This document shows, in pieces, positions 1 through 16,900 of a stretch of DNA of 40,820 nt (its first letter is position 1; each line of letters starts with the position of its first letter). The translations under genes and the position numbers were made by a program. The notes under the pieces are model-generated. The model was given only the letters and a program-made list of their open reading frames with translations. It was not told the DNA's origin and made no database searches. The stretch is from a virus (taxonomy: Duplodnaviria > Heunggongvirae > Uroviricota > Caudoviricetes): positions 1 through 40,820 of IMG/VR virus record IMGVR_UViG_2917413769_000008, one strand, 5' to 3'.

Positions 1-915
1 CTATGCTGTTTTGATATCTACGATAACCCAGTCTTTACCACGATCATCATTGTATCGGTCGGTCATTTTTCTGGATTTATGGCCTAACAACTTTTGCGTA
101 TCCAGACCCTGTTCCCGATATAACCGTTCTGACAGAGATCGCTGCTCATGAAATGTGGGCGCAGTTCCTTGCTCCCATTTTATGCCACATTTTTCCCTGG
201 CCTTTTTAAAAGCCGTTGTCAGAGTATTTGCAGAAACCTGGTCTCCTCTGTTTGCTTGAGAGGTAGTGTGACGGTAATGGACCAGATATTTACTAACAAC
301 AGCATCCCTGCACTGAGATATAACTTCACGAAGGGTAATATTCAGAGCATCGCATTTCAGGTTAAGCGGAATAGCAAGTTTTGAACCGGTTTTTTCCTGA
401 GTAATGTGCAACATGTCGTCCCAGATATCAGAGAATTTCAAATTGCAGATATCACCTAAACGTTGTCCAGTAACAAGAGCAAGTAGCATGCCGCATTTTA
501 AATAGGGCTGCCGTCTGCTTACGCTTTCAAATATTGCCTGCCATTCGGGCAGTGACAATCTTTGGCGGTTTACTCGATTTCGCGGTTGTTTTGTTGCCTG
601 TGCTGGGTTAAATCCTGGCGGAACATGTCCTGCGTGTTGTGCTTCTTTGAAGACGTCGATCAACACCATTCTCACGACTTGCGCCATCCTGTTATGACCT
701 TCAGCCTTTACAGCATCAATTATTTCGGCAATATCAAGTGCGGTAATATCCTTGAGGTGTTGCATTCCACAATGCTCACGGAAAAGACGAATGGGTTTGC
801 CTTTTTGCCGATAGGAGTTGGGTCTTAGTTCATTATGTTGCAGCCTGTCCTCCTGGATAGAAATATATTTATCAAGCCATTCTGTCACCGTAATGTCTGA
901 GCGCCTGCCTTTCAT
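1..915 (-). CDS. int: Tyrosine integrase (lambda Int family), core-binding and catalytic portion; longest ATG-initiated ORF, stop codon at window positions 1-3
   Basis: 304-aa ORF aligns to lambda Int from about residue 60 to the C-terminus (HELRSLSARLY / LLGHKS motifs conserved as HEQRSLSERLY / LLGHKS). Confidence 0.9.
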   Translation of the reverse strand: MKGRRSDITVTEWLDKYISIQEDRLQHNELRPNSYRQKGKPIRLFREHCGMQHLKDITALDIAEIIDAVKAEGHNRMAQVVRMVLIDVFKEAQHAGHVPPGFNPAQATKQPRNRVNRQRLSLPEWQAIFESVSRRQPYLKCGMLLALVTGQRLGDICNLKFSDIWDDMLHITQEKTGSKLAIPLNLKCDALNITLREVISQCRDAVVSKYLVHYRHTTSQANRGDQVSANTLTTAFKKAREKCGIKWEQGTAPTFHEQRSLSERLYREQGLDTQKLLGHKSRKMTDRYNDDRGKDWVIVDIKTA

Positions 916-1024
916 TCTTTCCAGACGCTCATTGACGCTTAATATTTGTCGGGTACGTTGTTCAGCAATAATGGTATTTGCTTCAGTAGCAACTTGTTTT
1001 GCTTCATTCTCATCAGTTCCTAAG

Positions 1025-1144
1025 CTATGAAAAACGACCGGATAGTGGATGTTTGTATTGCCAATATACCTTTCCGGTTCGCTTATCTAATTTGCAATAT
1101 AAATTGGGTATAGAGATTTTGTGAGATCGGGGTCTAGCAGCCAT
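1025..1144 (-). pseudogene. int: Integrase N-terminal arm-binding segment (MAARPRSHKISIPNLYCKLDKRTGKVYWQYKHPLSGRFS*) in a different frame from the 1..915 ORF; frames meet at an A5/T5 run (1030..1034)
   Basis: ATG at 1144 overlaps the xis 3' end as in lambda; RSH / PNLY / RTGK resemble the lambda Int N-terminus. Removing one T from the run joins it in frame to ...HSLGTDENEAKQ... of the downstream ORF. Confidence 0.55.
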
Positions 1145-1370
1145 CAGCGATTATCCGTTGGAGTTTTGGGTTTGCGTTTATTGGGAGTTGCGGTTCTGCA
1201 AGCGTTCCTACAAAACGGGAATTTCGGTCAATCATCCAGTAGCGACCAACTTTTATAGCGGGTGGGGCCATCATTTTCCCTTGCGCGTATTTTTTCAGAA
1301 CTCGCTCACTTGGTGCTAAGTCCCCAAATTCTTCTTTAGCCCAGTCCTGTAAAGTGATTAGTCGAGACAT
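1134..1370 (-). CDS. xis: Excisionase (Xis)
   Basis: 78-aa ORF immediately upstream of and overlapping int; N-terminus resembles lambda Xis (LTLQ-W motif). Confidence 0.8.
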   Translation of the reverse strand: MSRLITLQDWAKEEFGDLAPSERVLKKYAQGKMMAPPAIKVGRYWMIDRNSRFVGTLAEPQLPINANPKLQRIIADGC

Positions 1371-1509
1371 TTGTCCTCCTCTTAGCTGCTGAGGGAGTTT
1401 GTGACCGATATATCTGACATGATATTAAGCTCATGGCAGGTACATCTCTTGACTGGTCATAGAGATAAATTTAATGCTGAGAAATGCAGTATTGAATTTA
1501 TCAATTTTT

Positions 1510-1797
1510 CTATTTCCTGCGTATGGCACGTAACTTCTTAATGTGTTCTGCTGTATCGATCTCTTCGGCTATCCGCTCTGATTCCACTTTACTCACAGGT
1601 TCAAAGTCATGATTAAAGCGGAACATGCTGGCGATACATGTTCTGCCTTTTCGGATGTAGTGAACTTTGTTGTGGGTAGAACGCAGGATTTTGCAGGGAG
1701 TGCCGTGGTGGTCGACGTACCAGGTGTTAGGAAAAATGATTCTGAACATTTTTACACCCCAGTTGGACGATGTTGAAATTTGCTGCTTTGAGGCCAT
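1510..1797 (-). CDS. Hypothetical protein, early-left operon
   Basis: ORF whose ATG (1797..1795) overlaps the stop of the upstream TraR-like gene (TGATG coupling). Start choice is uncertain. Confidence 0.5.
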   Translation of the reverse strand: MASKQQISTSSNWGVKMFRIIFPNTWYVDHHGTPCKILRSTHNKVHYIRKGRTCIASMFRFNHDFEPVSKVESERIAEEIDTAEHIKKLRAIRRK

Positions 1798-2015
1798 CAC
1801 AGTCCCCATTGTTTGTTCTTAAGTTCGATCTCCTCCTGGCAACTTGCACAAGTCCGACAACCCTGAACAGCCAGGCGTCTTCGCTCATCTATCGGATCGC
1901 CACACTCACAACAATGAGTTGCGGATACAGTCTGGTAGTTCAGACGACGCATTTTTATTGCTGTATTGCGCTGTAATTCTTCGATTTCTGATGCTGAATC
2001 AATGATGTCTGCCAT
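1797..2015 (-). CDS. DksA/TraR-family C4 zinc-finger protein
   Basis: 72 aa with a CxxC-(17)-CxxC pattern (CCECGDPI...CRTCASCQEE) typical of TraR/DksA zinc fingers. Confidence 0.7.
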   Translation of the reverse strand: MADIIDSASEIEELQRNTAIKMRRLNYQTVSATHCCECGDPIDERRRLAVQGCRTCASCQEEIELKNKQWGL

Positions 2016-2063
2016 CTTTCATTAATCCCTGAATTGTTGGTTAATACGCTTGAGGGTAAATGC

Positions 2064-2092
2064 GAATAATAAAAAAGGAGCCTGTAGCTCCC
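2064..2092 (-). terminator. Rho-independent terminator inside the early-left operon
   Basis: On the minus strand: GGAGCtacagGCTCC hairpin followed by TTTTTTTATT. Confidence 0.5.
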
Positions 2093-2113
2093 TGATGATT
2101 TTGCTTTTCATGT

Positions 2114-2329
2114 TCACCGTTCCTTAAAGACGCCGTTCAACATGCCGATCGCCAGGCTTAAATGAGTCGGTGTGAATCCCATCAGCGTTACCGTTTCGCG
2201 GTGCTTCTTTAGTACGCTACGGCAAATGTCATCGACGTTTTTATCCGGAAACTGCTGTCTGGCTTTTTTGATTTCAGAATTAGCCTGACGGGCAATGCTG
2301 CGAAGGGCGTTTTCTTGCTGAGGTGTCAT
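2114..2329 (-). CDS. Hypothetical protein (71 aa, MTPQQENALRSIARQ...)
   Basis: Internal ATG of the 2114..2395 ORF; this ATG overlaps the stop of an upstream small peptide ORF (ATGA). Confidence 0.5.
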   Translation of the reverse strand: MTPQQENALRSIARQANSEIKKARQQFPDKNVDDICRSVLKKHRETVTLMGFTPTHLSLAIGMLNGVFKER

Positions 2330-2409
2330 TGAACAAGCCCCATGTCGGCAAGCATAAGCACACAGAATATGAAGCCCGCTGCCAGAAAAATGCATTCAGT
2401 GGTTGTCAT
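2326..2409 (-). CDS. Candidate small hydrophobic peptide (27 aa, MTTTECIFLAAGFIFCVLMLADMGLVQ)
   Basis: ATG-initiated ORF not in the supplied track (<60 aa); single hydrophobic helix; stop overlaps the start of the downstream 71-aa ORF. Confidence 0.3.
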   Translation of the reverse strand: MTTTECIFLAAGFIFCVLMLADMGLVQ

Positions 2410-2568
2410 ACCTGGTCTCTCTCATCTGCTTCTGCTTTCGCCACCATCATTTCCAGCTTTTGTGAAAGGGATGTGGCTAACGTATGAAATTCTTCTCTGT
2501 TTCTACTGGTATTGGCACAAACCTGACTCCAATTTGAGCAAGGCTATGTGCCATCTCAATACTCGTTC

Positions 2569-2757
2569 TTAACTCAACAGGAGATGCTTTGTGCATACCG
2601 CCTCCCGTTTATTATTTATCTTCTCAGCCAGCCGCTGTGCTTTCAGTGGATTTCTGATAACAGAAAGGCCGGGAAATACCCAGCCTCGCTTTGTAACGGA
2701 GTAGACGAAAGTGATCGCGCCTACCCGGATATTATCGTGAGGATGCGTCATCGCCAT
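2569..2757 (-). CDS. Small conserved lambda early-left protein (orf60a-like)
   Basis: 62-aa ORF immediately downstream of exo, overlapping its 3' end; matches my recollection of lambda orf60a. Confidence 0.7.
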
Positions 2758-3428
2758 TGCTCCCCAAATACAAAACCAATTTCAGCCAGTGCCTCGTCCA
2801 TTTTTTCGATGAACTCCGGCACCATCTCGTCAAAACTCGCCATGTACTTTTCATTCCGCTCAATCACGACATAATGCAGGCCTTCACGCTTCATGCGCGG
2901 GTCATAGTTGGCAAAGTACCAGGCATCTTTTCGCGTCACCCACATGCTGTACTGCACCTGGGCCATGTAAGCCGATTTTATTGCCTCGAAACCACCGAGC
3001 CGGAATTTCATGAAATCCCGGGAGGTAAACGGGCATTTCAGTTCAAGGCCGTTGCCGTCACTGCATAAACCATCGGGAGAGCAGGCGGTGCGCATACTTT
3101 CGTCGCGATAGATGATCGGGGATTCAGTAACATTCACGCCGGAAGTGAATTCAAACAGGGTTCTGGCGTCGTTCTCGTACTGTTTTCCCCAGGCCAGCGC
3201 CTTAGCATTAACTTCCGGAGCCACACCGGTGCAAACCTCAGCCAGCAGGGTGTGGAAGTAGGACATTTTCATGTCAGGCCACTTCTTTCCTGAGCGGGGC
3301 TTTGCTATCACGTTGTGAACTTCTGAAGCGGTGATGACGCCGAGCCGTAATTTGTGCCATGCATCATCCCCCTGTTCGACAGCTCTCACGTCGATCCCGG
3401 TACGCTGCAGGATAATGTCCGGTATCAT
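2748..3428 (-). CDS. exo: Lambda exonuclease (Red-alpha)
   Basis: 226-aa translation matches lambda Exo over its length. Confidence 0.95.
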
Positions 3429-4210
3429 GCTGCCACCTTCTGCTCAGTGGCTTTCTGTTTCAGGAATCCAAGAGCTTTCACTGCTTCGGCCTGTGTCAGT
3501 TCTGACGATGCGCGAATGTCGCGGCGAAATATCTGGGAACAGAGCGGCAATAAGTCGTCATCCCATGTTTTATCCAGGGCGATCAGCAGAGTGTTAATCT
3601 CCTGCATGGTTTCATCGTTAACCGGAGTGATGTCGCGTTCCGGCTGACGTTCTGCAGTGTATGCGGTATTTTCGACAATGCGCTCGGCTTCATCCTTGTC
3701 ATAGATACCAGCAAATCCGAAGGCGAGACGGGCACACTGAATCATGGCTTTATGCCGTAACATCCGTTTGGGATGCGACTGCCACGGCCCCGTGATTTCT
3801 CTGCCTTCGCGGGTTTTGAATGGTTCGCGGCGGCATTCATCCATCCACTCGGTAACGCAGATCGGATGATTGCGGTCCTTGCGGTAAATCCGGCATGTAC
3901 AGGATTCATTGTCCTGCTCAAAGTCCATGCCATCAAACTGCTGGTTTTCATTGATGATGCGGGACCAGCCATCAACGCCCACCACCGGAACGATGCCGTT
4001 CTGCTTATCAGGGAAGGCGTAAATTTCTTTCGTCCACGGATTAAGGCCGTACTGGTTGGCGACGATCAGCAATGCGATGAACTGCGCATCGCTGGCATCG
4101 CCTTTAAATGCTGTCTGGCGAAGAGTGGTGATCAGTTCCTGTGGGTCGACAGAATCCATGCCGACACGTTCAGCCAGCTTCCCTGCCAGCGTTGCGAGTG
4201 CTGTACTCAT
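3425..4210 (-). CDS. bet: Lambda Bet single-strand annealing protein (Red-beta)
   Basis: 261-aa translation matches lambda Bet; ATGA overlap with exo. Confidence 0.95.
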
Positions 4211-4215
4211 CCGTT

Positions 4216-4512
4216 TTATACCTCTGAATCAATATCAACCTGGTGGTGAGCAATGGTTTCAACCATGTACCGGATGTGTTCTGCCATGCGCTCCTGAAAC
4301 TCAACATCGTCATCAAACGCACGGGTAATGGCTTTTTTGCTGGCCCCGTGGCGTTGCAAATGATCGATGCATAGCGATTCAAACAGGTGCTGTGGAAGAC
4401 CTTTTTCCATGTCGTCTGCCAGTTCTGCCTCTTTCTCTTCACGGGCGATCTGCTGGTAGTGACGCGCCCAGCTCTGAGCCTCAAGACGATCCTGAATGTA
4501 ACAAGCGTTCAT
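4216..4512 (-). CDS. gam: Gam, RecBCD inhibitor (short 98-aa form)
   Basis: Matches the C-terminal 98 aa of lambda Gam; an in-frame stop lies 19 codons upstream, so the long isoform is not encoded. Confidence 0.9.
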
Positions 4513-4587
4513 GGCTGAACTCCTGAAAATGGCTGTGAAAATATCGCCAGCGAAATGCCAGGCTGATTAGAAAAACAGGAAAGGGGA

Positions 4588-4794
4588 TTAGTGATTCAGG
4601 CCGTTGCCGCGTCCGTCAAGAAAAACTTCCACGAGCAAGTCACGGGTATAAGTGCGCTCGATGCCGCGATGCAGATAAAGCCGTCCGCGTAAATTAGCTG
4701 ATGCTGTCCAGGTACCATCTTTGTGTTTGACCAGCATTCCTGGCATGACCGCACCGCGATTAACGGTCTGCGTTCCGTAATGTTGATGAACCAT
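4588..4794 (-). CDS. Hypothetical small protein (68 aa) in the kil/cIII position
   Basis: ATG ORF with E. coli-like codon choice 75 bp upstream of gam; no recognised family. Confidence 0.4.
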   Translation of the reverse strand: MVHQHYGTQTVNRGAVMPGMLVKHKDGTWTASANLRGRLYLHRGIERTYTRDLLVEVFLDGRGNGLNH

Positions 4795-4964
4795 AAAAAC
4801 CCCTGCCCGTAAGCTGGGCTGCTGAACATATAGAGACTTCTGCGCGTATTCAGGCGGTGGATGGCCGCCGGTGTCATAACTAAGCCGCCTCGTTGAAGCG
4901 ACTGAGGTATGAAGTATCGAGTTGATTTCAGCTGGTCACACCGACGTTCACGCGTCCGTTTCAC
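4596..4964 (-). CDS. Candidate N-like antiterminator with an N-terminal arginine-rich motif (GTG start; alternative reading of the same DNA)
   Basis: First ORF downstream of the presumed pL; GGGAG sits 6-7 nt upstream of the GTG; N-terminus (M)KRTRERRCDQLK resembles lambda N MDAQTRRRERRAEK. It overlaps the 68-aa ORF out of frame and its C-terminal composition is atypical. Confidence 0.25.
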   Translation of the reverse strand: MKRTRERRCDQLKSTRYFIPQSLQRGGLVMTPAAIHRLNTRRSLYMFSSPAYGQGFLWFINITERRPLIAVRSCQECWSNTKMVPGQHQLIYADGFICIAASSALIPVTCSWKFFLTDAATA

Positions 4965-5059
4965 CCCTCGCACTCCCCGTAGCCTGCTGAAATTCAAACT
5001 GCGGATCTAAGCGGTCATCGCAACGGTGAAACAGGTGGTTGCCGTATCGTTGTGTTGTT

Positions 5060-5125
5060 GCGATGAATTTATTTAAAACTATAGTTGTTTTGTCGTCAAC
5101 AACAAAAGTTGTTTTGTCGGTTATT
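5060..5125 (-). promoter_or_regulatory. Putative pL promoter with OL operator repeats
   Basis: Minus strand: TTGACG, 17 nt, TTAAAT; GTTGTT / AACAAC inverted half-sites; a ~30-bp block shared with OR (TTGTTGAC..AAAACAAC(C/T)ATAGTTTTAA). Confidence 0.55.
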
Positions 5126-5237
5126 TTAAATATAACTGGTTGTATTTAGGATGGATTTATTTTGTGACTTGCATCGCATAGCGATAACTGAAGCGAGGTT
5201 GTGGTGTTTTTTTTGAACGGTGTGTGATGAGGGTAGG

Positions 5238-5290
5238 GCAAAAGAAAACCCGGGCCGTGAACTGTCCAACTTTCGGGGGGCAGTTCACGG
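5238..5290 (-). terminator. Rho-independent terminator ending the cI-distal operon
   Basis: On the minus strand: CCGTGAACTG...CAGTTCACGG 10-bp stem followed by a T-rich tract (cccgggTTTTCTTTT). Confidence 0.6.
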
Positions 5291-5380
5291 GGGCAGGGTT
5301 TAGATGATTGGTTAAGAAAGGGTAATAGGGAATGAAAAATCGCTTTGCCTAATGCAAGGTGGCGAGCAGTTTCTTAAGCA

Positions 5381-5821
5381 CTAAAGAAAAAAGTACATTG
5401 ATAGCTTATAAAGTCCTGTTCCTGCAGCGATGATTGCTGGAACACCAAGCAATACCGCAAGCTTTGCGTCTGAAATCTTTCTATCGACAGCATCGATGGA
5501 TGGTTTTTTGGCTAGTGACTCTTTTATTGAATCGAGTCGCTCCAGAACAGCGATCATGTTTCTGTCGATAGATTTGACATCTGTCTTGAGCTCATCAACG
5601 TCACGTCGGATGTAGGACACATCAGACTCAAGCTTTGCAACTTTCGATTCAAGCACATTATTACTCCCAGAGCCACCGCTACCACTTGATTGTAGCATAG
5701 GTACATTACCGCCAGACATACCAGCTGATTGAGAAAATGCTGCGGTGTGCAAAGATGATGATCTTGCCGCTTGTTCAAGCTTTTCAGTTAGGTTTGGAGC
5801 TTCGTAATAACCGTGTTTCAT
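5381..5821 (-). CDS. Coiled-coil protein with Gly/Ser-rich N-terminal region and a single C-terminal transmembrane helix (146 aa); rexB-position cargo
   Basis: ATG ORF 8 nt after the upstream gene's stop; C-terminal LAVLLGVPAIIAAGTGLY hydrophobic segment; heptad-like LESKVAKLESDVSYIRRDVDELKTDVKSIDRNMIAVLERLDSIKESL region. Confidence 0.7.
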   Translation of the reverse strand: MKHGYYEAPNLTEKLEQAARSSSLHTAAFSQSAGMSGGNVPMLQSSGSGGSGSNNVLESKVAKLESDVSYIRRDVDELKTDVKSIDRNMIAVLERLDSIKESLAKKPSIDAVDRKISDAKLAVLLGVPAIIAAGTGLYKLSMYFFL

Positions 5822-5829
5822 TGTTAATA

Positions 5830-6099
5830 TTATGACTTATTGGTTTTAGCTCTATCATGCTGATCGCGAATAAAGTCAGCGAGTTTAAGCATTAAATCTT
5901 CCGTCATGCGAATTGTTGCAATGTTGTACTTTACGCTTTCAGTGTCATTACTACCATCAGCGTCCCATTCTGTAACATGCTGAAAGAAAGATATGGAGCC
6001 TAAGCGATCGTCATCTTCCCCAAAAGATGAATATCCAAATGCATCAGCATATGCATCTACACAGTTATTTGATTTTTTAATAAGTTTTTTATCACTCAT
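5830..6099 (-). CDS. Small acidic hypothetical protein (89 aa); rexA-position cargo
   Basis: Internal ATG at 6099 preceded by GGGAAAGG 6 nt upstream; AT-rich, unlike its neighbours; lies directly downstream of cI on the same strand. Confidence 0.65.
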   Translation of the reverse strand: MSDKKLIKKSNNCVDAYADAFGYSSFGEDDDRLGSISFFQHVTEWDADGSNDTESVKYNIATIRMTEDLMLKLADFIRDQHDRAKTNKS

Positions 6100-6179
6100 T
6101 TTTTGCCTTTCCCGTAATGTTATTTTTATAAAGAATTCTTTCAGCGCATTACCCAAAAGCCTCATCAGCACGCAGCTGA

Positions 6180-6869
6180 TTATCCGTGTTTCCTGTACGT
6201 CTGCGGCATGCTCCCAATAACCTTACCGAATATGAATACCCGATTCATCTCGTCTTTCTCGATCGGGTCCCACGGTGAGTAGCTCTTGTTATCAGAGATA
6301 ACCAGCAGCTTATCCTTCATCATTTGCAGGCGCTTTACATGGGCTGTGTCGTCGTACAGAAACGCATAGATGCCATCACCGTCGAAAGATTTAACAGTGA
6401 TATCAACGAACAGCAGGTCACCTGGTTCGATCGTCCCTGACATGCTGTCACCGCGCACGTTAATGATGCGGATATTTTCCGCCTTCCTGCCATCGAACAT
6501 GTGACGAGCATCGTCAAACGAGTACTCAACCGAGCGTAGAACTTCCACAAACTCACGGTTGATGACACCCGGTCCGGCACTGACTTCTATATCAAGAACG
6601 TCAATCTTGAAGTATTTTGAATGGCTGACAGTTGATTGTATTGGTTGCACGGTACTGTCTGACATATTTCCAACGCCAGAAGATAACCATTCTGCGCGCA
6701 CACCCAAAGCGTTTGCGATCTCCACGATTTTAGTTGTTTGGTTAGCTTTCCCTGTTTCGATTTTCTGAATGGCAGCCTGGCTAACCCCGACCATATCCCC
6801 AAGCGCCTTTTGTGTAAGGCCTCGCGCTAATCTGGCTTCTTTAAGTCTTTCTGAGAGTGTTGTTTTCAT
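6180..6869 (-). CDS. cI: Prophage repressor (cI-like): N-terminal HTH plus C-terminal LexA/S24-type autopeptidase domain
   Basis: Start taken as MKTTLSERLKEARLARGLTQKALGDMVGVSQAAIQKIE (HTH); C-terminal GDSM...K motifs of S24 peptidases; divergent from cro. Confidence 0.85.
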   Translation of the reverse strand: MKTTLSERLKEARLARGLTQKALGDMVGVSQAAIQKIETGKANQTTKIVEIANALGVRAEWLSSGVGNMSDSTVQPIQSTVSHSKYFKIDVLDIEVSAGPGVINREFVEVLRSVEYSFDDARHMFDGRKAENIRIINVRGDSMSGTIEPGDLLFVDITVKSFDGDGIYAFLYDDTAHVKRLQMMKDKLLVISDNKSYSPWDPIEKDEMNRVFIFGKVIGSMPQTYRKHG

Positions 6870-6973
6870 AGTCCAAATGTACAACCAAGGTTTTATTCCA
6901 TCAAACGAAAATGGTTGTTGACTAAAAACAACCATAGTTTTAATCTTGATTCAAATTAACCACGGAGGTTGTT
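6870..6973. promoter_or_regulatory. OR operator / divergent pRM-pR promoter region
   Basis: Palindrome GGTTGTTgactaaaAACAACC (6913..6933) and a wider ACAACCA...TGGTTGT repeat; pR TTGACT, 17 nt, TAATCT upstream of cro; a cI -10 (TACATT) only ~6 nt from the cI ATG suggests a leaderless cI mRNA. Confidence 0.6.
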
Positions 6974-7204
6974 ATGAACCCAGCTATCAAAACAGCGATC
7001 AATATCGTTGGTTCACAAAAGAAACTGGGCGCTGCTTGCGAAGTTTCACAGCAGGCCGTCTATAAGTGGCTTCACAACAAAGCAAAGGTATCCCCTGAAC
7101 ATGTCGGCAGCATTGTTACGGCTACTGGTGGAGTAGTGAAGGCATACCAGATTCGCCCGGATCTTCCGAAGTTGTTTCCACACACCGAAAAGAACGCAGC
7201 TTAA
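6974..7204 (+). CDS. cro: Cro-like HTH regulator
   Basis: 76-aa ORF divergent from cI, GGAGG RBS, HTH-like segment (GSQKKLGAACEVSQQAVYKW). Confidence 0.8.
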   Translation: MNPAIKTAINIVGSQKKLGAACEVSQQAVYKWLHNKAKVSPEHVGSIVTATGGVVKAYQIRPDLPKLFPHTEKNAA

Positions 7205-7273
7205 ATTTCCATTTAACGCTCTTTAACAATAAGCAATCAACTTAACAGTCAATTCAAACTAAAGGAGTCAATT

Positions 7274-7813
7274 ATGCAACCACTTACATACCAACAGACT
7301 AGCGGATTTAGCCCGACTGCGGTGATAAATCGTTCTCAAACAAAACAGGTGCCAGGCCACGAAAAAATCCGTGATGCCGTCCGCGCTTGGTCGGCTGAAG
7401 ATAATCAGGATGTCGTTGCCACACTCATTGTGAATGAGTATCGGGAGCAGGGCGGCGGCACCATCGATTTCCCTGATGATGTCAGCCGTGCACGCCAGAA
7501 GCTGTTCCGCTTCCTCGATAACAAATTCGATTCTGAAAAATACCGAAATAACGTGCGTGAACTGACCCCGGCAATTCTGGCGGTACTACCGCTGGAATAT
7601 CGCGGTTACCTGGTTGAGCAGGATAGCTTCATGGCTAGGTTGGCTGAAATGGAAAAGGAACTCAGTGAGGCAAAACAGGCTGTCATTCTCAACGCACCAC
7701 GCCACCAGAAACTGAAGGAAATTAGTGAAGGTATTGTGTCGATGTTTCGTGTGGACCCAGATCTGGCTGGTCCATTGATGGCGATGGTTACTACCATGCT
7801 GGGGGCGATATGA
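7274..7813 (+). CDS. YdaT-like protein in the cII position
   Basis: 179-aa ORF between cro and O with AGGAG RBS; family assignment from memory only. Confidence 0.5.
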   Translation: MQPLTYQQTSGFSPTAVINRSQTKQVPGHEKIRDAVRAWSAEDNQDVVATLIVNEYREQGGGTIDFPDDVSRARQKLFRFLDNKFDSEKYRNNVRELTPAILAVLPLEYRGYLVEQDSFMARLAEMEKELSEAKQAVILNAPRHQKLKEISEGIVSMFRVDPDLAGPLMAMVTTMLGAI

Positions 7814-7899
7814 CAGGTTCAGAAATGGCGAAAGCCGGTCTGCTGGAACAGAACCGACTTTCAGGTGCAAATCGTAACACACTCATTGCGGGAGGAATT

Positions 7900-8829
7900 A
7901 TGGCAAACACTGCTGAGATATTCAATTTTCCAGTGCCGGATGCGGCACAAAAGGAGCCGCGCGTGGCAGATCTCGATGATGGTTATACGCGCATTGCAAA
8001 TGAGTTGCTGGAAGCTGTGATGCTGGCCGGATTAACACAGCACCAGCTTCTGGTCTTCCTGGCTGTCATGCGCAAAACATATGGCTTTAATAAAAAACTG
8101 GATTGGGTGAGCAACGAGCAACTTTCCGAGTTAACCGGGATATTGCCGCACAAGTGTTCTGCTGCAAAAAGTGTTCTGGTAAAGCGTGGGATTTTAATTC
8201 AGAGCGGGCGGAATATCGGCATCAATAATGTGGTCAGTGAATGGTCAACATTACCCGAATCAGGTAAGAAAAATAAAGTTTACCTGAAAGAGGTAAATTT
8301 ACCTGAATCAGGTAAGAAAAGTTTACCCAAATCAGGTAAAGGCACTTACCCGAATCAGGTAAACACAAAAGACAAACTAACAAAAGACAATATAAAACCT
8401 TTTTCGTCCGAGAATTCTGACGAATCCTCTGACCAGCCAGAAAACGATCTTCCTGTGGTGAAACCGGATGCTGCAATTCAGAGCGGCAGCAAGTGGGGGA
8501 CAGCAGAAGACCTGACCGCCGCAGAGTGGATGTTTGACATGGTGAAGACCATCGCGCCATCAGCCAGAAAACCGAATTTTGCAGGGTGGGCTAACGATAT
8601 CCGCCTGATGCGTGAACGTGACGGACGTAACCACCGCGATATGTGCGTGCTGTTCCGCTGGGCATGCCAGGACAACTTCTGGTCCGGTAACGTGCTAAGT
8701 CCGGCCAAACTCCGCGACAAGTGGACCCAACTCGAAATCAACCGTAACAAGCAACAGGCTGGCGTGACAGCCGGAAAACCAAAACTCGACCTGACGAACA
8801 CTGACTGGATTTACGGGGTGGAGCTATGA
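7900..8829 (+). CDS. O: Replication initiator O (mosaic: non-lambda N-terminal DNA-binding half, lambda-type C-terminal P-interaction half)
   Basis: Start MANTAEIFNF... with GGAGG RBS; N-terminus resembles lambda O (VADLDDGY); C-terminal ~100 aa match lambda O; iterons lie inside the gene. Confidence 0.9.
   Translation: MANTAEIFNFPVPDAAQKEPRVADLDDGYTRIANELLEAVMLAGLTQHQLLVFLAVMRKTYGFNKKLDWVSNEQLSELTGILPHKCSAAKSVLVKRGILIQSGRNIGINNVVSEWSTLPESGKKNKVYLKEVNLPESGKKSLPKSGKGTYPNQVNTKDKLTKDNIKPFSSENSDESSDQPENDLPVVKPDAAIQSGSKWGTAEDLTAAEWMFDMVKTIAPSARKPNFAGWANDIRLMRERDGRNHRDMCVLFRWACQDNFWSGNVLSPAKLRDKWTQLEINRNKQQAGVTAGKPKLDLTNTDWIYGVEL
8251..8400. repeat. Replication origin: four ~18-bp iterons (TTACCYRAATCAGGTAAR) plus an A-rich flank, inside O
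   Basis: Direct repeats at 8251, 8299, 8323 and 8347, each an internal palindrome (TTACC..GGTAA), followed by cacaaaagacaaactaacaaaagacaatataaaacc. Confidence 0.8.
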
Positions 8830-9527
8830 AAAACATCGCCGCACAGATGGTTAATTTTGACCGTGAGCAGATGCGCCGGATCGCCAATAACATGCCGGAA
8901 CAGTACGACGAAAAGCCGCAGGTACAGCAGGTAGCGCAGATTATCAATGGTGTGTTCAGCCAGTTACTGGCAACTTTCCCGGCGAGCCTGGCTAACCGTG
9001 ACCAGAACGAACTGAACGAAATCCGCCGCCAGTGGGTTCTGGCTTTCCGGGAAAATGGGATCACCACGATGGAACAGGTTAACGCTGGAATGCGCGTAGC
9101 CCGTCGGCAGAATCGACCATTCCTGCCATCACCCGGGCAGTTTGTCGCCTGGTGCCGGGAAGAAGCATCCGTTAACGCCGGGCTGCCAAACGTCAGCGAG
9201 CTGGTTGATATGGTTTATGAGTATTGCCGGAAGCGTGGCCTGTATCCAGATGCAGAGTCTTATCCGTGGAAATCAAACGCGCACTACTGGCTGGTTACCA
9301 ACCTGTACCAGAACATGCGGGCCAATGCGCTTACTGATGCGGAATTACGGCGCAAGGCTGCCGATGAACTGGCCTGTATGACCGCGCGAATTAACCGTGG
9401 AGAGGCGATACCTGAACCAGTAAAACAACTTCCTGTCATGGGTGGCAGGCCGCTTAATCGTGTTCAGGCGCTGGCGAAGATCGCCGAAATCAAAGCGAAG
9501 TTTGGGCTGAAAGGGGCGAGTGTATGA
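8826..9527 (+). CDS. P: Replication protein P (DnaB helicase loader)
   Basis: 233-aa translation matches lambda P; ATGA overlap with O. Confidence 0.95.
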   Translation: MKNIAAQMVNFDREQMRRIANNMPEQYDEKPQVQQVAQIINGVFSQLLATFPASLANRDQNELNEIRRQWVLAFRENGITTMEQVNAGMRVARRQNRPFLPSPGQFVAWCREEASVNAGLPNVSELVDMVYEYCRKRGLYPDAESYPWKSNAHYWLVTNLYQNMRANALTDAELRRKAADELACMTARINRGEAIPEPVKQLPVMGGRPLNRVQALAKIAEIKAKFGLKGASV

Positions 9528-9823
9528 CGGGCAAAGAGGCAATTATTCATTACCTGGGGACGCATAAGAGCTTCTGTGCGCAGGACGTTGCTGAGGTAAC
9601 AGGCGCAACAGTAACCAGCATAAATCAGGCTGCGGCTAAAATGGCGCGGGCAGGAATCTTGGTCATTGATGGTAAGGTCTGGCGAACGGTGTATTACAGG
9701 TTCGCTACCAGGGAAGAACGGGAAGGAAAGGTGAGCACGAATCTGATTTTCAAGGAGTGTCGCCAGAGTGCCGCGATGAAGCGGGTTTTATTTGTTTATG
9801 CGGCGGGGGGAGGAAATCAGTGA
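9524..9823 (+). CDS. ren: Ren
   Basis: Matches lambda Ren (MTGKEAIIHYLGTH...). Confidence 0.9.
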   Translation: MTGKEAIIHYLGTHKSFCAQDVAEVTGATVTSINQAAAKMARAGILVIDGKVWRTVYYRFATREEREGKVSTNLIFKECRQSAAMKRVLFVYAAGGGNQ

Positions 9824-9974
9824 GGTTGACGATAACTAATATCTGGCGCTATATTCTGTGTGTTGCCGCAAAATCGGCACACGGGATTGGCGTCCCGGAT
9901 AAGGTAATCGCGACTACTACACGCCGCGAGCGTGTTTTTTATTGTCGTAAGCATACGCACATCTGAATTATGGT

Positions 9975-10040
9975 GGGGCGTGTAGGGCCGACTTCGGTCG
10001 GGCCGGTTGATTACCCCGGTTACGCCAACCCTACATGTCT
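9975..10040 (+). other. GC-rich structured element (nested hairpins, UUCG tetraloop) between ren and the antirepressor-like gene
   Basis: GGGCCGACttcgGTCGGGCC hairpin nested inside GTAGGG...CCCTAC; no convincing ORF. Confidence 0.3.
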
Positions 10041-10098
10041 CACCACCAAACTGATTGGCGTCAGCGGTGGTGGTTAACTTGATTTATAGGTAATCATC

Positions 10099-10704
10099 AT
10101 GAGCACACAACTAGTCTTTCATCAAACAAAATTCCATCCTGTTAAACACAACAACAGTATCTGGCTTACTGCCGTTGAGATTGCTCAAGCTCTCGGATAT
10201 AAAAAATCTGATGCCGTAACTCAGATCTACGATCGAAATTCCGATGAATTTAGGGCAGATATGACTGAGACCCTCAATTTGAGTGTCTCAGGGAACTACC
10301 AGAAAACAATACGCATTTTCTCCCTCCGTGGTGCCCATTTGATCGCTATGTTCGCCCGCACTCCTGTAGCCAAAGAATTCCGCCGCTGGGTTCTGGATAT
10401 TCTCGATCGAGAAGTTCAACAATCCCCAATCACAAAACAATTCACTGATAACGAACTTTGCACACCCGCCTGGTTATGGCGAGCAGGGGATGTGATGTTA
10501 ACCGCCTGCCAGAATGTTACTCCACTTCTTCAGGTTGCGGAGCATCGCGAAGCCGGTCGCTTTACTTCTATTGAGCAAGAATATCCCCAGATACTACATA
10601 AGGCGCGCGAAATCCTTGCCAGAGAAACGGCACATGTAAGATTCCAGCCGTGGCAGGATGATAAGTGGAGCCGAGTATTGCCGCATTTGCGTTCTGAGCA
10701 GTAG
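10099..10704 (+). CDS. AntA/Bro-N-family antirepressor-like protein (Roi-like)
   Basis: 201-aa ORF with good RBS; N-terminal region resembles AntA/Bro-N antirepressor domains (family call from memory). Confidence 0.6.
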   Translation: MSTQLVFHQTKFHPVKHNNSIWLTAVEIAQALGYKKSDAVTQIYDRNSDEFRADMTETLNLSVSGNYQKTIRIFSLRGAHLIAMFARTPVAKEFRRWVLDILDREVQQSPITKQFTDNELCTPAWLWRAGDVMLTACQNVTPLLQVAEHREAGRFTSIEQEYPQILHKAREILARETAHVRFQPWQDDKWSRVLPHLRSEQ

Positions 10705-10883
10705 CAATAAAGTTTCCGGTGAGAAATGTCACCAGCATTTTGTTATGAAACGGGTATTGGCGGTATATGGGGGCGGGGCTTTAGTTATTAGGTGTCGAGA
10801 ATTAATTGTTTGTAGCAATATAAAAAGGAACGCTTAAGTTCGTTTATTTTTTAAGCTTCATATACATAGTGGATAAAAATGAG

Positions 10884-10910
10884 AACCACCCGCTGAACGG
10901 GTGGTTTTGC
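10884..10910. terminator. Hairpin terminator between the antirepressor-like gene and the antisense moron
   Basis: AACCACCCGctgaaCGGGTGGTT followed by TTTTG on the plus strand; lies at the 3' side of both convergent genes. Confidence 0.6.
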
Positions 10911-10982
10911 GCAAGTTAAATTTTATAATTTCAGTGAATCTTTACGCGGTAATAATGCAAATGATAGTTGAAAAAAGCACTA

Positions 10983-11660
10983 TCAGTCGATAGACTCACC
11001 GTAGGATGCAACTGCCTGAGCGCTGTATATAATAGAAGTATGCTGGGTATATCCAGTATCCATCAGACAAGAATAAGTATTATCATCTTTATTAAAAGCG
11101 TAAATGCTACAAACACCCTCAAGCTCACAACTTGTGTCCCATCCACTATTAGTTAACGTGCCCCACTCCTGGTAAAGTCCTGCGTTAACTTTTCGATTGA
11201 TATGATGCCATCCGCTATTTTCATCAATATAGTCACTATCGATATCATGTATTCTAGGAAATTCTCCGTTCATGTTTTCAATCCACGGTAAAATCTTTTT
11301 AACTGAGTTATAAGTTTCAATGCTGTATTTGAAAAAACGCTTCACGATAAAAATATAGATGCCGGCAGATTTATTCGTTGATTTATCAGTGGCGAAAATG
11401 ACAAAAATCTTCCCAACGCACTTTTCATCTACGCCCGGAAAAGTTACTGTGCCATCCTGGCTAACCGCCAGAACATTATTGTCTGCATTAGTGCCACAGG
11501 TCCATTTTACCTTGTCATTATTAATAGGGTCATTATCAATGACCATCTTGAAGGTTGCTCCTGGGAACAAACTGTTAGGGAAACAGTAACCACTCTCCAT
11601 ATCATTTTTAATATCATAGATATGGCTATCAACTAACACGCCTGTAATTTTGCTCATCAT
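10983..11660 (-). CDS. Moron: hypothetical 225-aa protein of unknown function, AT-rich, antisense to the nin operon
   Basis: First ATG at 11660 with a weak GAGAG RBS (the longer ORF begins with TTG); strongly AT-rich with a flanking AT-rich noncoding region; no recognised domain. Confidence 0.7.
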   Translation of the reverse strand: MMSKITGVLVDSHIYDIKNDMESGYCFPNSLFPGATFKMVIDNDPINNDKVKWTCGTNADNNVLAVSQDGTVTFPGVDEKCVGKIFVIFATDKSTNKSAGIYIFIVKRFFKYSIETYNSVKKILPWIENMNGEFPRIHDIDSDYIDENSGWHHINRKVNAGLYQEWGTLTNSGWDTSCELEGVCSIYAFNKDDNTYSCLMDTGYTQHTSIIYSAQAVASYGESID

Positions 11661-12171
11661 TGAACTCTCTTTGTTTGTTAAATAAAAAGTTTTATTCCTG
11701 AACAACGGAACACGCTGATATTAATGCAACCAATGAATTGTTGTTGTTATTTGGAGGTTATATAGTGGTATGAATGTTATTATACGATGTCTCTGAGTGA
11801 TGGGGTAAGGATTATATGATTCGCTTTTGAGATTTACCTATGTCAGGCGTTGCTGTTCATGTTCGTCCCCGTTGTCAGTCTTCTTAGTCTGAGCTAATGT
11901 GATCATCAATGGGTTATCAGTTTTCTCTGAAGTTATATAATTAATTGAGCGCCATAGCACCATGGGGCATTGTTGAATTTCATCTTCAATTGATTTTCCA
12001 TAATCAACTCGCCATAATCATGTCATCGGAGCCTGAACACCTCCGGTGACTTCTGCGCTAAACGGGGACGTTTATGCGCACACACAATCCAAACTCTCTT
12101 CTCCCTTCACAGATGCAGAAATGCACCTGCGATTTTTTGCATCCAACGTTTGACCTCTGCGGAGGTGAAGC

Positions 12172-12627
12172 GTGAACCTCCCACAAGACGGCATCAAATT
12201 GCATCGCGGTAACTTCACCGCTATCGGTCAGCAGATCCAGCCTTATCTGGAGGATGGAAAATGCTTTCGCATGGTGCTTAAACCGTGGCGGGAGAGACGC
12301 AGTCTTTCCCAGAATGCACTCAGCCACATGTGGTACAGCGAAATCAGTGAATACCTCATCAGCAGGGGGAAATCGTTCGCTACCGCAGCATGGGTAAAAG
12401 ATGCTCTCAAACACACATACCTCGGTTATGAAACCAAGGACCTGGTTGATGTCGTAACCGGCGAAATCACTACTATCCAGTCGTTACGCCATACCTCCGA
12501 TCTTGATACCGGAGAGATGTATGTCTTCCTGAGTAAGGTTGAATCTTGGGCGATGAGTATTGGCTGCCACCTGACTATTCCGCAGAGCTGCGAGTATCAG
12601 CTGCTGCGTGATAAGCAGGAGGCGTAA
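12172..12627 (+). CDS. ninB: NinB-family recombination protein
   Basis: 151 aa, GTG start after GGAGG; [13 protein letters not shown] resembles the NinB RSLDQN motif; position at the head of the nin operon. Confidence 0.7.
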
Positions 12628-12797
12628 TGGCTACACCGCTTATTCGTGTCATGAACGGACACATCTACAAAGTACCAAATCGTCGTAAGCGTAAACCTGA
12701 GCTGAAGCCATCCGAAATACCAACACTGCTCGGATATACCGCCAGCCTGGTTGATAAAAAATGGTTGCGACTGGCAGCAAGGAGGAATCATGGCTGA
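12627..12797 (+). CDS. ninE: NinE-like small protein (56 aa)
   Basis: ORF not in the track (<60 aa); start overlaps the ninB stop, stop overlaps the next start; basic NinE-like sequence. Confidence 0.55.
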   Translation: MATPLIRVMNGHIYKVPNRRKRKPELKPSEIPTLLGYTASLVDKKWLRLAARRNHG

Positions 12798-13080
12798 TTT
12801 GAGAAAAGCAGCGCGTGGTCGGGAATGCCAGGTAAGAATCCCTGGCGTATGTAATGGCAATTCTGAAACGTCTGTACTGGCACATATCCGGCTGGCTGGA
12901 TTGTGCGGTACCGGTATCAAACCGCCAGACCTGATTGCCACCATTGCATGTTCTGCCTGTCACGACGAAATCGACCGCCGCACACATTTTGTCGATGCTG
13001 AGTATGCAAAAGAATGCGCGCTGGAAGGTATGGCGAGAACGCAGGTTATCTGGCTGAAAGAGGGGGTAATCAAGGCGTGA
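12790..13080 (+). CDS. ybcO: YbcO-like protein (96 aa, Cys-rich)
   Basis: [23 protein letters not shown]... with several Cys/His; sits between ninE and rusA as in DLP12-type nin regions (from memory). Confidence 0.6.
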
Positions 13081-13439
13081 ATACTTACTACATCACACTA
13101 CCCTGGCCGCCGAGCAATAACCGCTACTACCGCCATAATCGCGGGCGCACGCACATCAGCGCAGAGGGGCAGGTATACCGCGATAACGTCGCCCGAATCA
13201 TCAAAGGCTCCATGCTGGATATCGGTCTGGCTATGCCAGTGAAAATCCGTATTGAGTGCCACATGCCGGATCGCCGTCGCCGTGACCTGGATAATCTGCA
13301 AAAAGCAGCTTTTGACGCACTCACCAAAGCAGGTTTCTGGCTGGATGATGCTCAGGTCGTTGATTATCGCGTTGTGAAAATGCCCGTTACCAAGGGTGGG
13401 AAGTTGGAGCTGACCATCACTGAACTGGGAGATGAATGA
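13077..13439 (+). CDS. rusA: RusA Holliday-junction resolvase
   Basis: GTG start; translation ([26 protein letters not shown]...[25 protein letters not shown]) matches E. coli RusA. Confidence 0.9.
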
Positions 13440-13576
13440 TGTTTGAGTCTTATATGGCAGAACGTCTTCGCCGCCGCTGGGGGCGCCTGCGCTTATATCG
13501 TTTTCCCGGTTCTGTTTTGACCGATTACCGAATACTGAAGAATTACGCCAAAACACTGGCAGAGACAATTGTATGA
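13436..13576 (+). CDS. ylcG: YlcG-like small protein (46 aa)
   Basis: [41 protein letters not shown]...; start overlaps the rusA stop. Confidence 0.6.
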
Positions 13577-13656
13577 AGCCAGAGATAACGATCGGTTGAT
13601 GCCGTTTTATTGTTTTTTGCTGCCAATTGGCGTGCTGGTGTAAATGGAGAACGAGA

Positions 13657-14409
13657 ATGAATCTTGAGGCCTTACCAAAATATTACTCCCCAAAATCTCC
13701 AAAATTGAGCGATGACGCACCGGCGACAGGCTCTGGCTGTTTAACGATTACGGATGTGATGGCTGCGCAGGGGATGGTGCAGTCGAAAGCACCGCTTGGG
13801 TTTGCCTTATTCCTGGCAAAAGTTGGTGTTCAGGACCCTCAGTTTGCAATTGAAGGTCTGCTCAATTACGCGATGGCACTGGATAACCCGACATTGAATA
13901 AATTGAGTGCAGAAACACGGTTACAGATTATTCCTTACCTCGTGAATTTTGCCTTTGCTGATTATTCCAGGTCTGCGGCAAGTAAGGCTCGCTGTGAGCA
14001 TTGTGCTGGTACGGGATTTCATAATGTATTGCGCGAAGTGGTGAAACATTCCAGAAGCGGGGAATCCGTTATCAAGGAAGAGTGGGTGAAGGAACTATGT
14101 CAGCATTGTCATGGTAAGGGAGAAGTCAGCACAGCGTGCAGAGGGTGTAAGGGTAAAGGTATTGTCCTGGATGAAAAAAGGACCCGGCTTCATGGCACGC
14201 CTGTTTATAAGATTTGTGGGCGTTGCAATGGAAACCGGTTTAGCCGTTTACCAACCACACTGGCGCGGCATCATGTCCAGAAACTGGTACCGGACCTGAC
14301 GGATTATCAGTGGTACAAGGGGTATGCTGATGTTATTGATAAACTGGTTACAAAGTGCTGGCAGGAAGAAGCATATGCAGAAGCACAGTTGAGAAAAGTG
14401 ACAAGATAA
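13657..14409 (+). CDS. Q: Late-gene antiterminator Q (QuuD / phage 21-82 type)
   Basis: 250 aa from MNLEALPKYY; Cys-rich zinc-binding region; sits directly upstream of a pR'-like promoter and tR'. Confidence 0.85.
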   Translation: MNLEALPKYYSPKSPKLSDDAPATGSGCLTITDVMAAQGMVQSKAPLGFALFLAKVGVQDPQFAIEGLLNYAMALDNPTLNKLSAETRLQIIPYLVNFAFADYSRSAASKARCEHCAGTGFHNVLREVVKHSRSGESVIKEEWVKELCQHCHGKGEVSTACRGCKGKGIVLDEKRTRLHGTPVYKICGRCNGNRFSRLPTTLARHHVQKLVPDLTDYQWYKGYADVIDKLVTKCWQEEAYAEAQLRKVTR

Positions 14410-14440
14410 ATAATTTTCGCCGAAGATATCGACATGATGC

Positions 14441-14475
14441 TTGCATTTTTTCAAAAAATATGGATAGGATTTTCT
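14441..14475 (+). promoter_or_regulatory. Late promoter pR' with qut-like region
   Basis: TTGCAT, ~17-18 nt, TAGGAT, followed by tttctcaacgatggg, which resembles the lambda pR' initial transcribed sequence. Confidence 0.6.
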
Positions 14476-14515
14476 CAACGATGGGCTTTGTATGTCCGGT
14501 GTTGAGAAAAAGTAG

Positions 14516-14547
14516 AAAACCCGCTAATGAGCGGGTTTTTGTGTTTT
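14516..14547 (+). terminator. tR' rho-independent terminator
   Basis: AAACCCGCtaatgaGCGGGTTT hairpin followed by TTGTGTTTT. Confidence 0.8.
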
Positions 14548-14778
14548 AAATGGGGAGGTGGCTGGATGTCTAAAATAAACATTGCTTCCAAGTGTACAAC
14601 TATGCGTTAATGGCTGCGTCGGTTTGAAGAACAGACGATATACGAAGTAGTTTACTAAAGCAGTTCTCATTTCAGGTGTTATTCACTTATTCCTTCTTTG
14701 AGTCTCTCCAATTAAGTACGAAGTCGTTTCTGTTATACAAATCATTTATGCCGAAAGGCTCAAGTTAAGGAATGTAGA

Positions 14779-14994
14779 ATGTCAAATAAAATGACTGGTT
14801 TAGTAAAATGGTTTAACGCTGATAAAGGTTTTGGCTTTATTTCTCCTGTTGATGGTAGTAAAGATGTGTTTGTGCATTTTTCTGCAATTCAGAATGATAA
14901 TTATCGAACCTTATTTGAAGGCCAAAAGGTTACCTTCTCTGTAGAGAGTGGTGCTAAAGGTCCTGCAGCAGCAAATGTCATTATTACTGATTAA
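14779..14994 (+). CDS. cspB: Cold-shock protein (CspA family), inserted between Q and the lysis genes
   Basis: 71 aa with [12 protein letters not shown] (RNP1) and VFVHFSAI (RNP2) motifs; long 5' leader; CspB rather than CspI is from memory. Confidence 0.8.
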
Positions 14995-15192
14995 AATTCA
15001 TAGCTTGTCTGTATACGATAACGAAGAAGGCTGATGCCTGAGTAGAGATGCAGATAGAGTTGTGGGTATTGAATCCCATTTTGTGGTGAAGTGCAGGTTT
15101 GCTGCATGAATAGTTTTACAGTAGAAGCTAACTGCTGGCATAGCAATACAAAGTGCGTAAGTGGGTAACTACCACAAAAAGCACCACAATCT

Positions 15193-15220
15193 CAAACCCG
15201 CGCAGGCGGGTTTTTTATTA
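15193..15220 (+). terminator. Rho-independent terminator downstream of cspB
   Basis: AAACCCGCgcagGCGGGTTT followed by TTTTATT. Confidence 0.7.
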
Positions 15221-15275
15221 TCTGATTTAAATATATTATTAAAATATAAAAACTCTTTGTAAGTAATCGAAACAC

Positions 15276-15446
15276 TCAGGCAACAGCTTTAAGATTTGTT
15301 TGGAATACTTTGTTGCAATGAGGGCAGATCAAAAGGGCACCTTTTTGTACTCTAGAAAAACTGTGTTCTGATTCTTGGGTACAGTTTGGGCAAGAACATT
15401 TTACGAGATAATTACGGCGTGATTTTGAGTCTTTACGTTCTGACAT
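15276..15446 (-). CDS. Candidate small zinc-ribbon protein (56 aa, MSERKDSKSRRNYLVKCSCPNCTQESEHSFSRVQKGALLICPHCNKVF...)
   Basis: ATG ORF not in the track (<60 aa); CxCPxC...CPHC pattern. Confidence 0.4.
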   Translation of the reverse strand: MSERKDSKSRRNYLVKCSCPNCTQESEHSFSRVQKGALLICPHCNKVFQTNLKAVA

Positions 15447-15667
15447 AGGCTTTTCCTGTATAAATGGCCGTATACATTACACTAAATAGAAAAATATATC
15501 CCGCATTATTATTTAATAGATGGTTTTTCTTTTAAAATATTTAACCACATTATTTTAATTTTCTGTTTTTTGAGCGTCGTTGAGAACAACGTTTGCTGTA
15601 AAAACTAACCCGTAGACTCCGATCTTTTCAAACATATTGCACCATCCGTGTACATCGGGGTGAGGAT

Positions 15668-15883
15668 ATGAAATCAATGGATAAGTTAACAACAGGTGTC
15701 GCCTATGGCACCTCTGCAGGCAGTGCTGGCTACTGGTTTTTACAGTTGCTCGATAAAGTCACGCCATCACAGTGGGCGGCAATAGGTGTGCTGGGTAGTC
15801 TGGTATTTGGCCTGCTGACGTACCTGACAAACCTTTATTTCAAGATTAAAGAAGATAAGCGTAAGGCTGCGAGAGGTGAATAA
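15668..15883 (+). CDS. S: Class II holin (phage 21 S-type pinholin)
   Basis: 71 aa with dual-start MKSM, two TM segments and a charged C-terminus; matches phage 21 S from memory. Confidence 0.9.
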
Positions 15884-16380
15884 TGTCGCCATCATTACGC
15901 AAGGCTGTTGCAGCTGCTATTGGTGGTGGGGCTGTTGCCATAGCGTCTGTGCTCATCACTGGTCCGAGTGGTGACGATGGTCTGGAAGGTGTCAGCTACA
16001 TACCATATAAAGATATCGTTGGCGTATGGACTGTATGTTACGGGCACACCGGAAAAGACATTATGCTCGGTAAAACGTATACCGAAGCAGAATGCAAAGC
16101 CCTCCTGAATAAAGACCTTGCCACTGTCGCCAGACAAATTAACCCGTACATCAAAGTCGATATACCGGAAACAACGCGCGGCGCTCTTTACTCGTTCGTC
16201 TATAACGTGGGCGCAGGCAATTTCAGAACATCTACTCTTCTTCGCAAAATAAACCAGGGCGATATCAAGGGCGCATGTGACCAGCTACGTCGCTGGACAT
16301 ACGCTGGCGGTAAGCAATGGAAAGGCCTGATGACTCGTCGTGAGATTGAGCGTGAGGTCTGTTTGTGGGGGCAGCAATGA
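15883..16380 (+). CDS. R: SAR endolysin (lysozyme, phage 21 R-type)
   Basis: 165 aa with an N-terminal hydrophobic signal-anchor-release segment; overlaps the holin stop. Confidence 0.9.
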
Positions 16381-16814
16381 GCAGGGTAACCGCGATTATC
16401 TCCGCTCTGGTTATCTGCATCATCGTCTGCCTGTCATGGGCTGTTAATCATTACCGTGATAACGCCATTACCTACAAAGAACAGCGCGATAAAGCCACGT
16501 ACATCATCGCTGATATGCAGAAGCGTCAACGTGATGTAGCAGTACTCGACGCCAGATACACAAAGGAGCTTGCTGATGCTAACGCGACTATCGAAAGTCT
16601 CCGTGCTGATGTTTCTGCTGGTCGTAAGCGCCTGCAAGTCTCCGCCACCTGTGCAAAGTCAACGACCGGAGCCAGCAGCATGGGCGATGGAGAAAGCCCA
16701 AGACTTACAGCAGATGCTGAACTCAATTATTACCGTCTCAGAAGTGGAATCGACAGGATAACCGCGCAGGTTAACTACCTGCAGGAGTACATCAGGACGC
16801 AATGCCTGAAATAA
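16377..16814 (+). CDS. Rz: Rz i-spanin
   Basis: Start [19 protein letters not shown] (TM) overlapping the endolysin stop; coiled-coil periplasmic domain. Confidence 0.85.
16570..16761 (+). CDS. Rz1: Rz1 o-spanin lipoprotein embedded in Rz (+1 frame)
   Basis: 63-aa ORF inside Rz with a lipoprotein signal (LLVVSAC) and a Pro-rich mature part. Confidence 0.8.
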
Positions 16815-16845
16815 TTTTTTTGCAAATCACAAAGTCAATTTAATG

Positions 16846-16900
16846 AGCCTCGCGATGCGGGGCTTTTTGCAATAAATGCGTACCGCAACGCATGTTTTTT
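16846..16900 (+). terminator. Tandem hairpin terminators downstream of Rz
   Basis: AGCCTCGCgatGCGGGGCT followed by TTTTT, then ATGCGTaccgcaACGCAT followed by GTTTTTT. Confidence 0.6.

Follow-up and report, generated by a model that had tools for sequence, protein, structure and literature searches.

Is the integrase gene at the left end of this prophage truly broken, is it read across a change of frame, or was one base added to its record? The stretch of DNA analysed here (40,820 nt, called the window throughout) is a mosaic lambdoid prophage that runs from int to the tail-fibre genes, and its int is divided between two reading frames at a run of five A. The first-pass annotation had ascribed the split to a one-base frameshift at an A5/T5 homopolymer and had left two explanations side by side, a mutation that inactivates int, on the way to a cryptic prophage, and a homopolymer sequencing error. 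The anatomy of the split, the frequency of the allele, the origin of the record and the indels found elsewhere on the same contig were examined in turn.

The split gene and the integrase restored by removal of one base

Plus-strand positions 1020..1044 were read directly as CTAAGCTATGAAAAACGACCGGATA, with the A5 run at 1030..1034; the minus strand around the run is GGT CGT TTT TCA TAG, with T5 at 1034..1030. The first frame, from ATG 1144, encodes 39 residues, MAARPRSHKISIPNLYCKLDKRTGKVYWQYKHPLSGRFS; the second frame opens upstream of the run, reaches position 1 and has ATG 915 as its first start codon. The ORFs and the sequence thus agree with the earlier description, in which int started at ATG 1144 in overlap with xis, was stopped at 1025..1027 and continued in another frame, with its first ATG at 915, to position 1. 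The overlap of the xis and int starts is 11 nt, the same as in intact relatives. Removal of one base from the run gave a single ORF of 1143 nt (380 aa), ...KHPLSGRFHSLGTDENEAKQ...; the clean join claimed for such a repair therefore holds and yields a complete Int. The length of int is 1144 nt in the window and 1143 nt in every relative. An alignment to intact homologous integrases, proposed in the first-pass annotation as a check, gave the same picture: all 93 fetched relatives that align here have A4, are in frame and carry exactly one A fewer (93/93), so the junction of the two frames at the run is not due to chance; A5/T5 runs number 99 in the whole window. Coordinates are collected in the table.

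Table. Positions in the window of the int region, of two other genes at or near one-base differences and of the sites at which two assemblies disagree
Feature	Position	Strand	Remark
int, phage-21-type (lambda-family) tyrosine integrase gene	1..1144	-	Pfam PF09003 and PF00589
Frame-B ORF, 304 aa, core-binding and catalytic domains	1..915	-	PF00589 and PF22022 matches
Frame-A fragment, 39 aa, first half of arm DNA-binding domain	1025..1144	-	TAG 1027..1025
A5 run with one extra base, frameshift (coding strand T5)	1030..1034	.	relatives A4
Discordant site 1	1030..1034		window/GenBank A5, Logan A4; in int
xis, excisionase, 78 aa	1134..1370	-	protein 100% identical to a relative's WP_000088653.1
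DUF1382 (lambda orf63-like) gene, truncated to 39 aa	2409..2596	-	lesion near 2496
kil-like (KilR-like) gene, 68 aa	4594..4794	-	4871/4872 just upstream of annotated start
Discordant site 2	5207..5214		window/GenBank T8, Logan T7; no called gene
Discordant site 3	5255..5256, CC in CCCGGGCCG		window/GenBank CC, Logan CCC; no called gene

The lambda Int arm DNA-binding domain (PF09003) was matched by residues 1-71 of the repaired protein (E = 1.7e-28), in line with the likeness to the arm-binding domain of lambda Int pointed out earlier. On the 39-aa fragment the match was confined to residues 1-38; the unrepaired sequence breaks off the domain after residue 38, and, since PF09003 spans residues 1-71, the break lies in the middle of the arm domain. 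The catalytic domain (PF00589) was found at repaired residues 200-367 (E = 1e-23). The repaired protein was aligned end to end with lambda Int (1z1b; E = 1e-55), and in this alignment, read by eye, VTGQR, QEKTG, FHEQR, LGHKS and DRY stand at the R-K-H-R-H-Y catalytic positions; by this reading all six positions appear to be conserved. The arm-binding, core-binding and catalytic domains of lambda Int (PDB 1z1b, 1z1g, 5j0n) are all present in the repaired protein, whereas the two differ in that lambda Int is a distant homologue (the alignment was judged visually) and in that its attB lies between gal and bio; the int of the window uses icd.

Phage 21 (GenBank M61865, OL657228), a lambdoid phage that integrates at icd, is 99.3% identical in nucleotides over int-xis and has the same 11-nt overlap; 3 of the 380 residues of its Int differ from the repaired protein. 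One amino acid differs from the Int of E. coli 118UI and none from the Int called on a contig of a second assembly (Logan, L106; see below); the exact 380-aa protein was found on at least 1,000 contigs among the matches listed in the protein collection. Across int-xis, identity to 27 phage records and to more than 1,500 E. coli chromosomes is 99.1-99.8%, and the E. coli and phage copies are annotated as site-specific integrase and excisionase, adjoining icd. Arm domain, catalytic domain and genomic context all point to a lambda/phage 21-type tyrosine integrase; the underlying gene is already well known as such.

The left end of the prophage (L105 16936..17100) carries a phage-21-type attL with three TTTTGGGGAA repeats and the phage-borne icd 3' end beside the host icd, as in phage 21; identity between the attL region and the attP/icd' region of phage 21 is 93.5%, and the host icd lies about 113 bp past the int stop. 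Compared with phage 21, the window record has five A in place of four at the run, and the rest of its prophage is another mosaic (immunity, replication and tail modules differ).

Frequency of the five-base run and other disruptions of int

A 65-base query laid on the run was matched in 1,627 complete E. coli genomes, in every case at 64 bases and in none (0/1,627) at 100% identity. In IMG/VR the 39-mer with the 4-base run was found on 88 contigs and the exact 40-mer with the 5-base run on none; the exact 40-mer had no match in JGI metagenome contigs. The sole match among species-representative genomes (39 bases, i.e., A4) lies in a contaminated MAG, and exact look-up of the 39-aa int fragment in the protein collection returned no record. 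By these counts the A5 allele is seen once in over 1,700 copies of this locus and is either a private mutation or an error. Two properties looked for in a pseudogene were not seen: the lesion is not common to relatives, and further decay of int was not found, the repaired protein being the widespread allele described above.

The same comparison bears on the possibility that the split is bridged, by programmed +1 frameshifting on CGU-UUU-U-CAU or by transcriptional slippage, and that full-length Int is made in a low, regulated amount. After a +1 shift on UUU-U the tRNA-Phe could re-pair, and the zero-frame stop codon stands two codons downstream. A recoding site should be conserved, however, and every homologue examined is in-frame A4; as A5 was seen in no homologue examined, a conserved recoding site is excluded. 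Five bases are a short run for transcriptional slippage, no stimulatory element was evident, and the remaining evidence for an artefact, given below, counts against recoding as well. Programmed +1 frameshifting and transcriptional slippage were rejected on the failure of conservation, no homologue having the site, and a bridged frameshift is regarded as extremely improbable.

According to the other biological explanation, a very recent insertion (+1), private to the strain from which the record was taken (E1130, see below), lengthened the A4 run and truly inactivated int. A 39-aa peptide with part of the arm-binding domain would remain, together with at most a 304-aa protein that lacks this domain; the prophage would be unable to excise and would have begun to turn cryptic. 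Spontaneous frameshifts arise most often by slippage at base runs, and this speaks for such an insertion, as does the disruption of the int N-terminus in other genomes. In loci L095-L104 int is cut in its N-terminal part, equivalent to about 944..1090 of the window. Genes of IS1-type transposases adjoin the cuts in L095-L098 and L100, with varied breakpoints, and a DUF772 transposase gene adjoins that in L099; in L104 codon 28 is changed from TGG to TGA (Trp28 to stop). A 304-aa product identical to that of the window is also called on contigs whose int is cut by other lesions. These N-terminal inactivations are independent and recurrent.

The window record, taken as written, would resemble prophages left grounded or cryptic by an inactivated int, in that its Int would be without a working arm-binding domain, and natural examples exist for this very int. 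It differs from them in that its lesion is absent from the second assembly and from the relatives and in that int has no other decay; the singleton state of the allele and the lack of further decay both argue against a private mutation. Were A5 real, which is quite unlikely, E1130 would have a freshly grounded icd prophage, one more N-terminal inactivation in a recurrent pattern; such a case might reflect selection to keep the prophage fixed in its site, and would otherwise be routine prophage grounding of little general interest.

Source record and second assembly

Homopolymer-length indels and miscalls are the characteristic error of Ion Torrent sequencing. The window was found to be 100% identical to PDIL01000007.1 (GCA_004745435.1), a contig of Escherichia cryptic clade II strain E1130, over the stretches compared (1..16935 and 18715..40820); no product is called in that record between xis and icd. 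Ion Torrent was the only platform used for E1130 and 15 sister strains; the E1130 reads were single-end, 35-400 bp, about 50x, and after assembly in MIRA and SPAdes CONTIGuator was applied and gaps were closed by hand (genome announcement, PMC6639607). The consensus thus comes from an error-prone platform and was made without polishing by another technology (PMC6639607), as would be expected if the extra A were a homopolymer error; the platform likewise weighs against a private mutation.

Exact look-ups of proteins of the window, which had led to this record, also returned a second assembly, two Logan contigs of the run SRR6148301, of which _404 covers 1..11285 and _0 covers 21715..31944 of the window (21,515 bases in total). 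Over these bases 0 substitutions and 3 differences were found, all of them single-base homopolymer lengths (discordant sites 1-3 of the table), and at 3/3 sites the Logan length is that of the wider population: at the T8/T7 site the length in relatives matches the Logan version, and at the CC/CCC site a relative with a full-length alignment (L048) has CCC, as in Logan. On the Logan contig int has A4 and is called as a 380-aa product. A run of four A, or a full-length integrase, had been named beforehand as the observation that would tell against the split; the Logan contig consensus in effect supplies it. A lesion reproduced in a second assembly, looked for as a further mark of a pseudogene, was not found, the Logan contig having A4 and 0 substitutions over 11.3 kb.

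Since the prophage repressor of the window was found, among NCBI assemblies, in E1130 alone, and since the number SRR6148301 fits the period of the project's SRX numbers (E1130 = SRX3260321), we infer that this run is probably E1130's own, from the same isolate. In that case the length called for the run changes with the assembler, and A4, which agrees with the population, is much the likelier true state, because otherwise Logan would have erred exactly at three truly mutated sites, each time restoring the ancestral length; the two assemblies, coming from one read set, are not independent measurements. If the run came from a clonal sister, 3 homopolymer indels with 0 substitutions in 21.5 kb would not be credible as biological divergence, and this too, with the A4 of a near-identical assembly, stands against a private mutation; with a different clonal isolate behind SRR6148301, A5 could be a private mutation of E1130.

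A fourth difference (AA vs A) lies inside icd, 4 nt from the tip of a Logan contig. It is assigned to the Logan side, since icd stays at 416 aa in the GenBank version, and it shows that the underlying reads carry homopolymer noise. The Logan assembly is therefore not error-free, and its A4 consensus is an indirect proxy for the reads.

Other indels on the contig and the reading of the extra base

About 12.5 kb of the chromosomal flank of the same GenBank contig were compared with E. coli. The pgrR homologue has A9 (A8 in E. coli), the alpha/beta hydrolase gene beside it has G (GG in E. coli) and the yeeN homologue has A6 (A5 in E. coli; residues 1-230, before the indel, 98.7% protein identity); in each the frame is lost. 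The indels are located at L107 19967 and 21724 and at L109 21211 (hydrolase, pgrR, yeeN). E. coli has intact copies of all three genes; the E1130 record calls no product for any of them. Three broken conserved host genes in so little DNA argue for assembly error rather than biology, and the occurrence of this type of lesion in conserved genes nearby is a further point against a private mutation in int. Together with the T8/T7 and CC/CCC sites, the pgrR, hydrolase and yeeN indels are the other run-length errors that were looked for in the assembly as a sign of homopolymer error. Near L107 19559 lies a tract of about 10 C within an alpha/beta hydrolase gene, with a length that differs here; the E. 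coli reference strain likewise has a frameshift annotated in that gene, and the tract could be naturally unstable.

The window itself was scanned for frameshifts on the basis of the annotated CDS of relatives. A scan of the relatives' stop-to-stop ORFs was discarded, as antisense ORFs and upstream non-coding parts produced many false events. About 60 annotated genes of relatives were comparable, and all of them are full-length and in one frame in the window except int and DUF1382; since the DUF1382 difference is a real allele (see below), errors seem to be sparser in the prophage than in the host flank, which counts against an artefact in int.

In DUF1382 one base is deleted at a site that is not a homopolymer (ACAGA-GAAG), the base being present in 51/52 aligned relatives; the deletion is also found in the Logan contig, and 79 blocks of the collection, drawn from many unrelated runs and carrying differing integrases, contain the identical 39-aa product. 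The frameshift was considered as a second sequencing error and was rejected in view of these 79 blocks; by its distribution, the truncation is a real allele circulating in nature and unrelated to the int lesion. That the prophage has one real frameshifted accessory gene may be counted in favour of a private mutation in int. At 4871..4872 the window has GGTG, and 39/39 aligned relatives have GGTTG. Because this site lies upstream of the kil-like start and the difference is common to the Logan contig, it is uninformative on errors; it would be coding only if translation of the kil-like gene began at an in-frame ATG further upstream, which relatives have.

At the right end of the prophage (window 40820 on, L109 13694..15000) a displaced icd fragment, an attP-like sequence and a cognate attR were sought, and none was seen; this end adjoins SDR, NmrA, alpha/beta hydrolase and pgrR genes. 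The arrangement would come either from recombination between two prophages, with rearrangement of the chromosome, or from a false join made in the scaffold at the CONTIGuator or manual closure step. The lack of a cognate attR in the assembly is the last point on the side of a private inactivating mutation, which on the whole of the evidence is held to be unlikely.

The frameshift is, by contrast, very probably a homopolymer artefact of sequencing or assembly. This reading is favoured because the record is an Ion Torrent-only draft, the second assembly has A4, the allele is a singleton and the same lesion is found in host genes. The window would then encode a phage-21-type integrase of the usual kind, functional in appearance, in a lambdoid prophage at icd, and the extra A would be a homopolymer miscall kept in the consensus of the Ion Torrent-only draft of E1130 (PDIL01000007.1); the true sequence would most likely be A4, with an intact 380-aa Int. 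Of the two alternatives offered by the first-pass annotation, the homopolymer error is thus upheld by platform, Logan contig, allele frequency and host-gene indels, and the inactivating mutation is not; the proposed step toward a cryptic prophage finds no support in the A5 lesion, given the Logan A4 and the singleton allele.

The case resembles the frameshifts by homopolymer miscall known from Ion Torrent and 454 data in the single-base change in a mononucleotide run, the disagreement of two assemblies, the several conserved genes hit and the documented platform; no departure from that pattern was found. Scans of raw sequence flag genes split at base runs as pseudogenes or as recoding sites, and caution is advised, since in Ion Torrent-only or unpolished assemblies such genes are mostly artefacts. 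As source, platform and second assembly could all be found, the case of int can be closed without wet work.

Some minor observations were made on the remainder of the window. The 93-aa ORF at 2114..2395 was tried as a lineage marker and proved useless, being a common normal gene. Exact look-up of the 799-aa tail-fibre ORF, taken from its mechanical start codon, gave no match; the annotated 797-aa version was matched. Among the loci fetched, no close relative was found for 10708..12017, 13437..15822, 16448..17908 and 38007..39591; these segments include a 225-aa gene with a weak Invasin_D4 match (10983..11660, minus strand) and a 250-aa antiterminator-like gene. In the J-to-tail-fibre region VATL01000052.1 (GCA_005781065.1) is 100% identical to the window over 5,843 bases (34479..40321).
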